Positions 49,734-54,780 of a stretch of DNA of 64,000 nucleotides are shown here, piece after piece. The stretch spans positions 2,336,001-2,400,000 of the forward strand of contig OZ241865.1 of the NCBI GenBank assembly GCA_965203275.1, read 5' to 3'. Made by a program: the position numbers and the translations under genes. Each line of letters opens with the position of its first letter. The first letter of the stretch is position 1. The notes below the pieces were generated by a model. It had not been told where the DNA came from. It did no database searches and saw only the letters and a list, made by a program, of their open reading frames with translations. This DNA comes from Bdellovibrionales bacterium (lineage in GTDB: Bacteria > Bdellovibrionota > Bdellovibrionia > Bdellovibrionales > JAUICD01).

Positions 49734-50006
49734 TTAATTTATTGTTAGTTTATTGGTTTTTAAAATTGAATTGACATTGACAGCAATAAAACTGTCATAC
49801 AGTAAGCTTCTCTGAAGCTTGCTGTAGGCTTTAAATAGCTTAAAGCTTATGAAGTATCTGGGATTAAATGAATAAATTGTGATGAGAAGCACTTTGTTAA
49901 AGTGTATATGCTGGCAAAACCCTGTATTGCTAGAGAGAGAGAGAGAGAGAGAGAGAGAGAGAGAGAGAGAAGTAAACCTTTCAATGGATTGTGATGTTAT
50001 GAACAT
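49734..50006 (-). CDS. Leader ORF containing a (TC)19 tract, in frame (90 aa)
   Basis: SD AAGGAAGG then ATG 50006; stop abuts the lipoprotein SD. Confidence 0.45.
   Translation of the reverse strand: MFITSQSIERFTSLSLSLSLSLSLSSNTGFCQHIHFNKVLLITIYSFNPRYFISFKLFKAYSKLQRSLLYDSFIAVNVNSILKTNKLTIN
49932..49970. repeat. A(GA)19 microsatellite
   Basis: Direct reading. Confidence 0.95.
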
Positions 50007-50127
50007 GAATAAGTCCTTCCTTTTGTTTTTCAACATTGTGTTAAGGGAACAATTCCTTCTAATGCTTGAGTGCCGGATCCCGTCCCGGATAAAGTATATT
50101 TAAATACCCTTTCATTACTATTATCGG

Positions 50128-50321
50128 CTCAAAATATTGAATACTTTTATCAACTTTTAATTTTATCTAAAACTTAGTCTTTTGTCTTATGGTTTCTAAC
50201 ATGGAATTCTTCTTGTTTCACTCAAAATATTGAATACTTTTATCAACTTTTAATTTTATCTAAAACTTAGTCTTTTGTCTTATGGTTTCTAACATGGAAT
50301 TCTTCTTGTTTCACTCAAAAT
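50128..50321. repeat. 93-bp tandem duplication
   Basis: ctcaaaata at 50128, 50221 and 50314. Confidence 0.9.
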
Positions 50322-51078
50322 AAATCATGCCTCTGTTTCCCTAAAATTGAACTAGCCTCTGGCTACTTTTGGGCAGTTAGCCCGACGGCTACCGCCGTCG
50401 ATCAAAGGCTAACCGCCTCAAAAGCTTGTTCAATTTTAGGAAGAAGAATCTCTTCGTCTCTTGACCACATGTTAAGGAAAAAGTTCCTTCTTACACCTTG
50501 GGCAATGACCGCAATGGCTTTCGCCATTGGCAAAATGCTCATTGCCTCAAAAATCTATGCATTTTGAGTAGAGGAGGATCCTTTTATTCCTCTACACCAT
50601 GTTAGGGAAACAAGATATGTCTCTAAAATGTTTTTGGAGAGCAAGCGGATTTACGAATAAGGAACTTTTTCCTTAACATGAAATTTATCCGGGATCTGGG
50701 ATCCGGGATCTGGGAGATGTTTCCTTAACATGATGTTAAAAAACGAGGAGATCCTCTCTACTCAAAATGAGCAGTTTTTTGCGGCATTGCTCTTTTTGGA
50801 CAGCGATAGCTGTCAGAGCAATGCCCAAAAACACACCAGAGGTGTGGCTCATTTTGAGTGAAACAACTAACTTCCTACTCAAAGTGAACAGGCTTTTGAG
50901 ACAATGACCATTTTGTCAAAGGCGAAAGCCTTTGCGGTCATTGTCTAAAAGTGACCAGAGGTCAGTTCACTTTGAGTGAAACAGAGGCTGGTTTATTTTT
51001 AGTGAGACAAACGTGGTCATCGCCAGAAAGTGACCAGAGGTCAGTTCATTTTGAGTGAAACAAACCACATTTAGTGAA
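50305..51078. repeat. Cluster of 4 structured repeats (2 forward, 2 reverse), a GGATCCC element and stacked ends
   Basis: Copies ~50335-50480, ~50498-50612, ~50718-50865, ~50874-50984; end fragments to ~51078. Confidence 0.9.
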
Positions 51079-51128
51079 AAAGAAGGCATGATGGAGCATA
51101 AAGGCCGCTTGCTACGGCCCTTGTATTC

Positions 51129-51851
51129 TTATTGACGTGTCGATCTTAAGAGTGTTTTCACATCTTCTGAAGTCATTACAGTATCTCCTGTTTCTTCTAT
51201 AACTATTCTCACATTTTCTTCAGTTATAACAATATCTTCAGCCTTTAGCATTAATTGGATAATTTCACTATAGCTATTAATTAAAAAGGGGTATCTGAGA
51301 TAGGATATGTAAGCCAGTGCAAAGGCATTCATTAAAGGCGAAGAAGGTTTTATAGTTTGAATGTCAACGTCAGCTCCGGCTACTAGCAATAGCTTGACAA
51401 TCTCAATATAAAGATCGTGGTGGGTATCTTCAGTAGACCTTTGAAGAGCATATATTAAAGGCGGATTGCCATTTTCATTGTCTCTAGTATTAACATCAGC
51501 ACCGGCTTCTAGCAATAGCCTGACAATCTCAATATGGCCTCTATAACTAGCATCTATTAATGCCGTCGTACCATTATCGCTTAGATGATTGACGTCAGCA
51601 CCGTTTGCAATTAAACGTCTTACACCATTAAGGTCGTTAATTATAATGCATTGTCTTAGGGATTCACATTGCTGAGTGTCTACTGCATCTTGAGTGTCTA
51701 CTGCATCTTGAGTGTCTACTGCATCTTGAGTATCTACTGCATTTTGAATATCTACTGCATGTTGAGTGTCTATTGTATTGTGAGTAAATTCTTTATTTTG
51801 ACATGCAACCATGGACAAAAATAAAGATAAAGAAAAAAATATATTTTTCAT
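51129..51851 (-). CDS. Ankyrin-repeat lipoprotein with an 18-bp (DTQDAV) repeat linker
   Basis: Lipobox MVAC, GADVN ankyrin repeats. Confidence 0.88.
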   Translation of the reverse strand: MKNIFFSLSLFLSMVACQNKEFTHNTIDTQHAVDIQNAVDTQDAVDTQDAVDTQDAVDTQQCESLRQCIIINDLNGVRRLIANGADVNHLSDNGTTALIDASYRGHIEIVRLLLEAGADVNTRDNENGNPPLIYALQRSTEDTHHDLYIEIVKLLLVAGADVDIQTIKPSSPLMNAFALAYISYLRYPFLINSYSEIIQLMLKAEDIVITEENVRIVIEETGDTVMTSEDVKTLLRSTRQ

Positions 51852-51911
51852 TGTTTATACCTCCTTTTTAATAGGTTTAAAGTTTTAATTTAAAATAATA
51901 CTAAAGGTACA

Positions 51912-53550: not shown

Positions 53551-53623
53551 AAAAGCTCCCTTATATATTATTTTAGGTTGATATTTGTGAATGACTGTCA
53601 GTCATCCTCTTTAATAATTTAAA

Positions 53624-53750
53624 AGCAATTTTCATTCCAAAAGTTAAAAACCATCTTATAGCTTTATTTACAATGGAATCAGCAGATATAGCTTTAATCA
53701 ATGAGTGTAAAGGGATATGTCATGTATGAATACAGTGACAAAATTTGTCA
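53624..53750 (-). promoter_or_regulatory. Putative sigma-54 promoter with TGACA-N5-TGTCA palindrome
   Basis: Minus strand TGGAATGAAAATTGCT at 53624-53639; palindrome at 53736-53750. Confidence 0.5.
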
Positions 53751-53913
53751 TTAAGATATATTGTTATTGAGATTAAATGAGGGGAAAATATACCAAAGAG
53801 AGATATATAATTTAAAAGGTCTTAAATAATGTTCTAATAAGATCTCAACAACCTTATTTGTCTAATATGGATTGACAAATAAAGTTGTTGTTGCCTTTGA
53901 GGTCTAAGTGTAG

Positions 53914-54501
53914 TTAGTCGTCGAGGTCGAGTAGTCCTAATTCATTCCTTACCACGCCATTTGCAATACTGGCGCGAATAATACGTATAAGATTCCAAAG
54001 AGTAGTGAGAGACTCCTTTGAAAATACGAGAACACTTCTCAATCCTTCAGGGTCTTTCTTCTGCAAGTATTGGTACGAGATACCTGCTACAATTGAGGCA
54101 CCTAATGAAACAGCCCCTGTTCTTGTCATAAGACGCCTGAGATTTCTATAGAAAGCCTTTACAGCAATTACACTAGCAGTAGCCCCTACTCCTAAAGCAG
54201 CAAAAGTCCTTATACTCGCTGTTGATAACATAACACTGAACGCACCATCATCAGTTTGTGTAGCTGTACTCAGATCACTTTCTAATTCTGTCAATGCTCC
54301 TCTTATAAACTGAGCTTCATCTTGAGTGACAGGTTCTTCATGTTGATCTAATTGAGCTACAGTTCTCTCTTGGGCTTTAGGGGTTTTTGCACTTTTACAA
54401 TTTTGATGATGATCGTGTTTGGCTACTGTCTCTGGAGCAGTAGTGCATCCCACTGATATAGTCACCAAAGCAAATAATAAAAAACTTAAATAATATTTCA
54501 T
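53914..54501 (-). CDS. Lipoprotein (paralogue 2 of 49139..49720)
   Basis: First 33 aa identical; C-terminal part diverged. Confidence 0.8.
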   Translation of the reverse strand: MKYYLSFLLFALVTISVGCTTAPETVAKHDHHQNCKSAKTPKAQERTVAQLDQHEEPVTQDEAQFIRGALTELESDLSTATQTDDGAFSVMLSTASIRTFAALGVGATASVIAVKAFYRNLRRLMTRTGAVSLGASIVAGISYQYLQKKDPEGLRSVLVFSKESLTTLWNLIRIIRASIANGVVRNELGLLDLDD

Positions 54502-54515
54502 GATTGACTCCTTTT

Positions 54516-54780
54516 TTAATTTATTGTTAGTTTATTGGTTTTTAAAATTGAATTGACAGCAATAAAACTGTCATACAGTAAGCTTCTCTGAAGCTTGCTG
54601 TAAGTTTTAAATAGCTTAAAGCTTATGAAGTATCTGGGATTAAATGAATAAATTGTGATGAGAAGCACTTTGTTAAAGTGTATGTGCTGGCAAAACCCTG
54701 TATTGCTAGAGAGAGAGAGAGAGAGAGAGAGAGAGAGAGAGAGAAATAAACCTTTCAATGGATTGTGATGTTATGAACAT
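54516..54780 (-). pseudogene. Leader ORF copy 2, frameshifted by (TC)18
   Basis: ATG 54780 to stop 54516 spans 265 nt, not a multiple of 3. Confidence 0.45.
54708..54744. repeat. A(GA)18 microsatellite
   Basis: Direct reading. Confidence 0.95.

Follow-up and report, generated by a model that had tools for sequence, protein, structure and literature searches.

Introduction

Outer-membrane protein genes of Helicobacter pylori carry CT repeats in the region encoding the signal peptide and are phase-variable within the gene itself. A less direct arrangement has been described for the pil1 and pil3 loci of Streptococcus gallolyticus, where GCAGA repeats lie in a leader peptide gene that has its own ribosome-binding site (RBS) and determine where the leader stops with respect to a terminator hairpin, which opens when the leader is long. 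Mutants of the start codon and of the terminator, together with three-stop mutants, proved this (Danne et al. 2014, PMC3894217). Here we describe a module of comparable layout in a 64,000-nucleotide stretch of the genome of a Bdellovibrionales bacterium (GCA_965203275.1, contig OZ241865.1, positions 2,336,001-2,400,000; henceforth the window), in which two leader open reading frames (ORFs), each containing a long (GA)n microsatellite, precede paralogous lipoprotein genes. Both copies, A and B, are on the minus strand, and positions are those of the window unless marked as genome positions; two further copies, C and D, lie elsewhere in the same genome. We give an even chance to the reading that the tracts act as a frameshift on/off switch, working through the leader ORF on the surface protein genes behind it.

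Translation of an upstream frame can also act on termination through Rho. A review (PMC12360218) presents tnaC-type control by upstream ORFs (uORFs) and the invertible fimS and Clostridioides difficile flgB switches as cases of Rho termination that depends on a uORF or a switch, and frameshifts that create premature stops are reported to cause Rho-dependent termination in Neisseria meningitidis siaD (Lavitola 1999, cited in PMC3025981). With these systems the module would share an upstream frame whose translation shields the RNA and a heritable, stochastic switch in front of a surface-structure operon; their input is a metabolite, a DNA inversion or an in-gene frameshift, whereas here it would be a microsatellite in a leader ORF. 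Repeats in the long leader of a surface or sensory protein gene, a position that the tracts would share given the predicted transcript, are known from the 7-bp repeats of Haemophilus influenzae hmw (PMC12721329) and from the G-repeat of H. pylori tlpB, which is targeted by the small RNA (sRNA) RepG (PMC8295292). These repeats work through RNA structure, processing or sRNA pairing, with an output graded with length, whereas in the present module an ORF led by a Shine-Dalgarno (SD) sequence and frame-specific stops flank a hairpin. A 2025 review (PMC11868660) lacks the words leader, upstream ORF, polar, UTR and untranslated, and the literature searched records only a single species in which a repeat within a leader peptide gene brings about phase variation.

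The likeness to pil1/pil3 is one of layout. In both cases the length of the repeat unit is not a multiple of three, so that repeat number sets the leader stop; short versions stop well before the hairpin and long ones in or beyond it; and there is more than one locus per genome. An RBS-led leader is common to both: an SD-like 5-mer and an ATG lie 30-42 nt upstream of the tract in all four copies, and to judge from copy C the leader would be the first ORF. Here 18-22 copies of a 2-nt unit, GA/TC, stand against 13-22 copies of the 5-nt GCAGA there, and one frame in three is long rather than two in three. The hairpins are weaker (-8 to -15 as against -18.7 and -28.2 kcal/mol), those of copies A and B not being canonical terminators, and in A and B alone the long frame reaches the RBS of the gene, 13 nt before its ATG. 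The candidate promoter is of the sigma-28 type, unlike that of pil1/pil3; there is no homology to the pil1/pil3 sequences; and the host is a Gram-negative-type, Bdellovibrio-like genome as against a streptococcus. Whereas pil1/pil3 was proven by mutants, the present module is known from sequence alone. The preliminary description of this DNA called the design unusual, a label that is not supported, as the same principle was proven for pil1/pil3 in 2014 (PMC3894217): the indirect leader-ORF design is real and rare, and not new in kind.

A four-copy module built around perfect GA tracts

The genome (2,567,810 bp, 35% G+C) contains 12 dinucleotide runs of at least six units. Eight of these have 6-7 units and the other four are (GA)18, (GA)19, (GA)20 and (GA)22, all of them perfect and between the same flanks, TGAAAGGTTTAYT...TAGCAATAMAGGGTTTT. 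Copy A carries (GA)19 (49932-49970), which on the coding strand is (TC)19 plus T and would be read from the RNA, as (UC)19U, into a (Ser-Leu)n stretch of the leader ORF; copy B carries (GA)18 (54708-54744; (TC)18 plus T on the coding strand). The tracts of copies C (n=20; genome positions 393614-393653) and D (n=22; genome positions 552665-552708) lie outside the window. Repeat number thus differs among the four paralogous copies despite near-identical tract flanks.

The order of elements is the same in all four: a GCCGATAA box, an SD sequence with ATG, 10-14 codons, a perfect (TC)18-22 tract, a TAG abutting the tract, and a hairpin 99-154 nt further on. Common to A, B, C and D are the core TGAAAGGTTTAYT-(TC)nT-AGCAATAMAGGGTTTT and about 100 nt of upstream sequence, the best-conserved part being the 13-16 nt on each side of the tract; the sequence after the tract is AAAGGGTTTT. 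From promoter to lipoprotein ATG, copies A and B are identical at 457 of 474 aligned bases (96.4%), whereas the flanks of A/B and C/D share about 80% identity or are beyond alignment. No decayed or short-tract copy of the module is present in the genome. A motif TGAAAGG(N0-3)TTTA occurs two to three times in each of the four modules, around the leader SD and immediately beside the tract (e.g. 50100-50115 and 49971-49985); it could stem from an ancient duplication within the module or serve as a binding site.

The locus is contained in public runs, some of them labelled sponge metagenome and none of those listed an RNA run. Contigs assembled from four of these runs (X1, X3, X6 and X7) stop at 49922/49980 and around 54699-54754, i.e., exactly at the tracts. 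In the contigs of X3, X6 and X7, copy A has copy-B-type bases at 49703, 49827 and 49829, which suggests either that the 5' regions of A and B have undergone gene conversion or that strains differ here; exchange between the copies would fit the presence of copy-B bases in copy A in three runs.

Outside this genome, the flank-plus-tract pattern was found in none of 40 relatives and in no metagenome contig, and neither the module nor the target genes turned up in any relative, metagenome contig or species-representative genome searched. A DNA search of four relatives (G001-G004) returned one 32-nt AT-rich match (E=0.005) beside a tRNA gene, judged to be due to chance. A (TC)53 tract in G002, from the same family but another genus (L009, 1480-1608), is not the same module: it lies directly behind an ATG, lacks an SD sequence and occupies the spacer of two ordinary genes.

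Repeat number sets the length of the leader ORF

The leader ORF of copy A (49734-50006) has 90 codons. Its start region reads AAGGAAGGA-N7-ATG, with the SD-like AAGGA 7 nt upstream of the ATG at 50006; 12 codons precede the tract, 13 Ser/Leu codons lie within it and 65 follow. The frame closes with a TAA (49736-49734) 13 nt before the lipoprotein ATG, which stands at 49720 behind GGAG (49730-49727). The preliminary description had this (GA)19 ORF in frame and ending at the lipoprotein SD, as is the case. It was equally correct that the (GA)18 ORF of copy B is frameshifted: from its ATG at 54780 it is only 24 codons long (54706-54780), closed by the TAG at 54708-54706. The 63-codon continuation of copy B (54516-54705) is open and ends at the RBS of lipoprotein B; it would be reached if n mod 3 = 1, and the sole indel inside it relative to copy A is 6 nt. 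The microsatellite lies, as described, in a separate, RBS-bearing upstream ORF, outside both the lipoprotein gene and the promoter spacer, and ORF frame and length depend on n.

The tract is read as Ser-Leu in any frame, and n alters the post-tract frame only. With n mod 3 = 0 (copy B), translation would stop at the conserved TAG at the tract end. With n mod 3 = 2 (copy C, n=20), the post-tract stop comes after 27 codons in A/B and 8 in C/D. Only n mod 3 = 1, the current state of A (n=19) and D (n=22), gives a long frame, with 65, 63, 35 and 52 open post-tract codons in A, B, C and D. Relative to the tract, the short-frame stops lie at -1 and +82 in A and B (in copy A at the tract end and at 49849-49847) and at -1 and +25 in C and D, and the long-frame stops at +195 (A), +189 (B), +105 (C) and +156 (D). 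It is the identical post-tract frame that is long in both sequence families, A/B and C/D. The module has two properties of the simple sequence repeat (SSR) contingency class: its short-unit repeat is long and uninterrupted, and a change of repeat number shifts the reading frame, and with it the length, of the leader. In 5,000 shuffles of each sequence, the probability of any frame as long was 0.032 for A, 0.041 for B, 0.054 for D and 0.216 for C.

All four leader ATGs have an SD-like 5-mer 4-12 nt upstream, a site found at 4,366 of the 90,946 ATG triplets of the genome (4.8%). The leader starts use three different SD sequences at three positions (-36, -30 and -42 from the tract), with no intervening stop. 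This conservation of SD and ATG is the strongest sign that the leader may be translated. Beyond about 15 residues after the tract, the leader peptides of A/B and C/D are unrelated. Their composition is like that of translated AT-rich non-coding DNA, part of it from a dispersed repeat, and no match at E<=0.1 was obtained among 5.8 billion proteins. A Pfam match to TEBP_beta was under the cut-off and was set aside; no Pfam family was above it.

Hairpins and base composition behind the tract

In copy A, two adjacent hairpins (free energy, dG, -12.4 and -8.4 kcal/mol) lie at 49778-49826 on the minus strand, 105-153 nt after the tract, and are crossed by the long frame only. Copy B has one (dG -14.8 kcal/mol; 54564-54608, minus strand) 99-143 nt after the tract; the values for C and D are -12.8 and -9.9 kcal/mol. 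The hairpins of A/B and C/D stand at the same place in unrelated sequences. The short frames end at least 23 nt short of the hairpin; the long frame ends within it in C and runs past it in the other three copies. The best 45-nt window of copy A reached -15.8 kcal/mol versus -8.4 (standard deviation 2.0) in shuffles, with 0 of 300 as good; P was 0.003 for B, 0.023 for C and 0.087 for D.

The C/G ratio of the mRNA strand lies between 3.4 and 6.75 within the tract and, in most of the ~150 nt that follow, between 2 and 3.75, the 90th and 99th percentiles of the genome being 1.9 and 3.7. A rho gene is present in the genome. From this C-rich, G-poor composition and the presence of rho we infer that Rho may be involved.

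Two other sources of RNA-level control were considered. Known RNA families were searched in 48800-55400 with three sub-threshold matches only, all inside miniature inverted-repeat transposable elements (MITEs). Sequestration of the lipoprotein SD was rejected, as the predicted folds leave it unpaired and the whole-leader z-scores are only -1.65 and -1.13.

A candidate sigma-28-type promoter

A sigma-28-type -10 octamer, GCCGATAA, lies upstream of the leader at 50121-50128 in copy A, with TAAA 17 nt further upstream, and at 54899-54906 in copy B, both on the minus strand. The octamer is invariant in the four modules while neighbouring bases vary, and TAAA stands at N17 in all four. This spacing is shared by only two others of the 148 GCCGATA sites in the genome, where TAAA is mostly at N15-N16. 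In Bdellovibrio bacteriovorus, attack-phase FliA promoters follow TTAAG-N16-CCGATA, and their targets include cell-surface proteins (PMC3627812). The modules resemble these promoters in the CCGATA core, here extended to GCCGATAA in all four, and a FliA gene is present (TIGR02479, 257.4 bits versus a cut-off of 189.6). They differ from the consensus in the -35 region: read against it, A, B and D have AAAAG-N16-CCGATA and C has TAAAG-N17, a perfect -10 match with a partial -35 match. The transcription start is a prediction, and the element a candidate FliA promoter.

Copy C, which is free of MITEs here, has GCCGATAA 23 nt upstream of the leader ATG; because of this position its transcript would begin at the leader SD, making the leader the first ORF. 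In A, B and D, MITE or repeat fragments are inserted between the box and the leader start, and the distance from GCCGATAA to the tract ranges from about 55 to about 150 nt.

Upstream of copy A lies a perfect 93-bp tandem duplication (50128-50322; 2.1 copies), which duplicates a sigma-70-like AAGACA-17-TAAAAT site and a MITE end, not GCCGATAA. The AAGACA-17-TAAAAT site occurs twice in A, is present in C and is degenerate in B and D. It is a secondary candidate only, because such matches are no commoner than in shuffles. The tract does not serve as a -35/-10 spacer either, as the flanking hexamer candidates would sit 45-53 nt apart, and the promoter scan gave no promoter-like site between tract and gene.

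The genes behind the leaders encode diversifying surface proteins

Lipoprotein A (193 amino acids; 49139-49720, minus strand) has its own SD and a signal peptide ending in ISVGC, and belongs to an orphan family. Lipoprotein B (195 amino acids; 53914-54501, minus strand) is its paralog, as the preliminary description had stated, with 57-58% identity and the first ~35 residues near-identical. The two ORFs begin 206-211 nt after the tract, each with its own SD and signal peptide and with a stop codon between. Of the two coding sequences, the first 100 nt are identical at 97 positions and the remainder at 330 of 466 (70.8%). The family comprises four proteins in the 5.8-billion set, the window's own two included, and MKYYLSFLLFALVTISVG-C is present in all four, a pattern that we take to be a lipobox with Cys at +1. 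None of 20 relatives has a homolog; two related-locus matches (L007 and L008) were spurious, resting on the signal peptide. Nothing in Pfam was above the cut-off and there was no usable Atlas match. The AlphaFold model has a mean predicted local distance difference test (pLDDT) score of 55.2.

Downstream of both C and D comes a secreted protein of about 315 amino acids, and behind it one of about 101. The two large proteins have identical signal peptides and 42% identity over 216 alignable residues; no homolog was found among the 20 relatives and no Pfam domain. All four targets thus have one mosaic structure, conserved in the 5' region and diverged in the mature part.

A CT/GA tract near a start codon, read as Ser-Leu, a frame that would decide between ON and OFF, and paralogous surface proteins are features shared with the H. 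pylori outer-membrane protein genes. The module is nevertheless not of that in-gene type, since the tract lies outside the regulated gene, with a stop, an RBS and a separate start and signal peptide in between.

Two genes between the modules appear variable in their own right. A gene for a 478-residue secreted protein (52390-53758) differs by 60 letters and 14 gaps in the X1 contig, and similarly in X6, with no differences in its neighbours, and has the look of a surface gene that varies among strains. In an ankyrin-repeat lipoprotein, the signal peptide is followed by an 18-nt repeat (DTQDAV) in 5.6 copies (51673-51786), which is another length-variable surface feature.

Proposed mechanism and alternative explanations

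Slipped-strand changes would alter n, and n would set the leader frame on a transcript driven by a FliA-dependent promoter. In the long frame (n mod 3 = 1 only), ribosomes would stop the hairpin and the C-rich, G-poor leader from cutting transcription short, whether at the hairpin itself (intrinsic termination) or through Rho; in A and B they would also be delivered to the lipoprotein start 13 nt past the leader stop. In the two short frames the leader would be left bare and most transcripts would end early. If so, lipoprotein A and the gene behind D would currently be ON, and lipoprotein B and the gene behind C OFF. The suggestion that the microsatellite works indirectly, through the leader ORF, is the best-supported reading; it gains from the two further copies and from the presence of a hairpin crossed by no frame other than the long one. 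The part of that suggestion that foresaw alternative expression of the two variants finds no support, because the tracts are independent counters and four on/off combinations are possible.

Several observations weigh against such a switch. In A and B, the terminator scan flagged nothing intrinsic on the way from tract to gene, and the hairpins there have no adjacent U-run; a U-run (ACUUUUU/AUUUUU) is found behind the C/D hairpin only. Because the A/B hairpins are weaker and not canonical terminators, Rho or coupling may take the place of intrinsic termination. About 33-37 nt of the A/B hairpin (GCAAGCTTC-AGA-GAAGCTT...; 49790-49826 and 54570-54600) share 85-89% identity with one sub-module of a variant dispersed repeat that recurs in about 20 other places, and since ~33 nt resemble that repeat the hairpin may be an accidental insertion. 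Coupling would not be needed for initiation, as the lipoprotein has its own strong SD, unsequestered in the predicted fold. In C and D, 600-850 nt separate the end of the leader ORF from the gene, with MITEs carrying terminator-like hairpins in between, and a 4-nt indel relative to D cuts the long frame of C to 35 codons. The ORF-length statistics are modest (P 0.03-0.2), A/B and C/D counting as one lineage each, and the -35 match is imperfect (TAAA-N17 in the modules versus TTAAG-N16-CCGATA in B. bacteriovorus). Assembled tract lengths may be consensus values, possibly off by one unit. Among the relatives searched, none carries the module.

The tract might instead act by length alone, the ORF being incidental, an explanation that we regard as improbable though deserving of attention. 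As DNA, the polypurine/polypyrimidine tract could alter the structure near the promoter or the distance at which a regulator is bound; at the RNA level, (UC)n in a long 5' untranslated region (UTR) could alter folding, processing, or binding of proteins or sRNAs. Expression can be modulated without frameshift by SSRs that lie upstream of a gene or in its 5' UTR, as known cases show (PMC12721329, PMC8295292). Leader peptides that are not conserved beyond ~15 residues after the tract would suit such a model, and so would the recurrence of TGAAAGG..TTTA, 2-3 times per module, as a binding site might recur, and the strongest conservation in the 13-16 nt next to the tract. The last of these can also be explained by gene conversion seeded in the identical tracts, given that B bases are seen in A. 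A fixed spacing between promoter and tract is not kept, owing to the MITE fragments present in A, B and D, and the region between tract and gene offers no promoter-like site. Length alone leaves unexplained why SD and ATG are kept in four of four copies through three sequence solutions, and why the long frame and the hairpin recur at the same places in two unrelated leader sequences. That the product under phase variation is the leader's own Ser-Leu-repeat peptide of 81-90 residues, the downstream gene being independent, is very improbable indeed. A good SD and ATG in every copy would suit it, as would the retention of the ORF in C/D far from the next gene; a functional peptide is hard to reconcile with post-tract sequences that are unrelated between A/B and C/D beyond ~15 residues, that match nothing in the 5.8 billion proteins or, above cut-off, in Pfam, and that have the composition of translated AT-rich non-coding DNA, in part taken from a dispersed repeat.

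Somewhat less probable than action by length is the absence of any regulatory role: the microsatellite would have arisen once and been copied with the 5' region, its similarity upheld by gene conversion and by a balance of slippage gains and losses, while frame and hairpins would be chance features of repeat-riddled, AT-rich DNA. The common flanks do indicate a single origin of the module, the 5' regions are homogenised (96-97% identity as against 71% in the remainder of the gene), and the open-frame statistics reach only P ~0.03-0.2. The resemblance of part of the A/B hairpin to a dispersed repeat, the (TC)53 tract between ordinary genes in the same-family relative and the MITE insertions tolerated between leader and gene in C and D point the same way. 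Against this stand four uninterrupted tracts within the narrow range of 18-22 units, although the A/B and C/D flanks are only ~80% identical or unalignable, and the absence of decayed copies from the genome, which has both mutS and mutL. All four tracts, moreover, lie upstream of diversifying secreted protein or lipoprotein genes and retain SD and ATG, and other SSR switches are plainly used in this genome.

Contingency loci in the genome and significance

Poly-G/C tracts of 10-23 nt number 30 in this genome, a striking figure at 35% G+C. They fall into paralog families with conserved flanks and differing lengths (e.g., 16-19, 15/22/22, 20/23 and 10-16). At genome positions 1412725, 1426997 and 1430269, tracts of G12, G12 and G16 lie 10-13 codons after an SD-led ATG in genes for paralogous secreted proteins of more than 600 amino acids, all three currently out of frame. 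These tracts, in 5' coding regions, are a case of classical, translational SSR phase variation. Within the window, a C12 tract (61769-61780, plus strand), one of a family of five copies that all have 12-nt tracts, lies ~55-110 nt upstream of a large gene starting near 61835-61890. We know of no phase variation described in this lineage.

A farther-reaching interpretation is that the module is the first microsatellite leader-peptide attenuator outside Gram-positive cocci and has a different way of working, in which (UC)n would be at once the frame counter and a near-ideal Rho loading site, shielded by ribosomes in the long frame. The device would gate a FliA-driven set of surface proteins that are diversifying, and would be one component of an extensive, as yet undescribed collection of contingency loci in host-associated relatives of Bdellovibrio. 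In this full form we consider it doubtful.

If the leader-ORF switch is real, it would be a second independent invention, with another repeat unit, in a distant phylum and at four loci, and the design would be general and easy to evolve. The pattern to seek in annotation would then be an SD-ATG, a repeat, frame-specific stops, a hairpin and a surface gene. The genome of this uncultured bacterium is rich in contingency loci, and its four GA and 30 poly-G/C tracts would point to strong, fluctuating selection on the cell surface, by a host, prey or phages.

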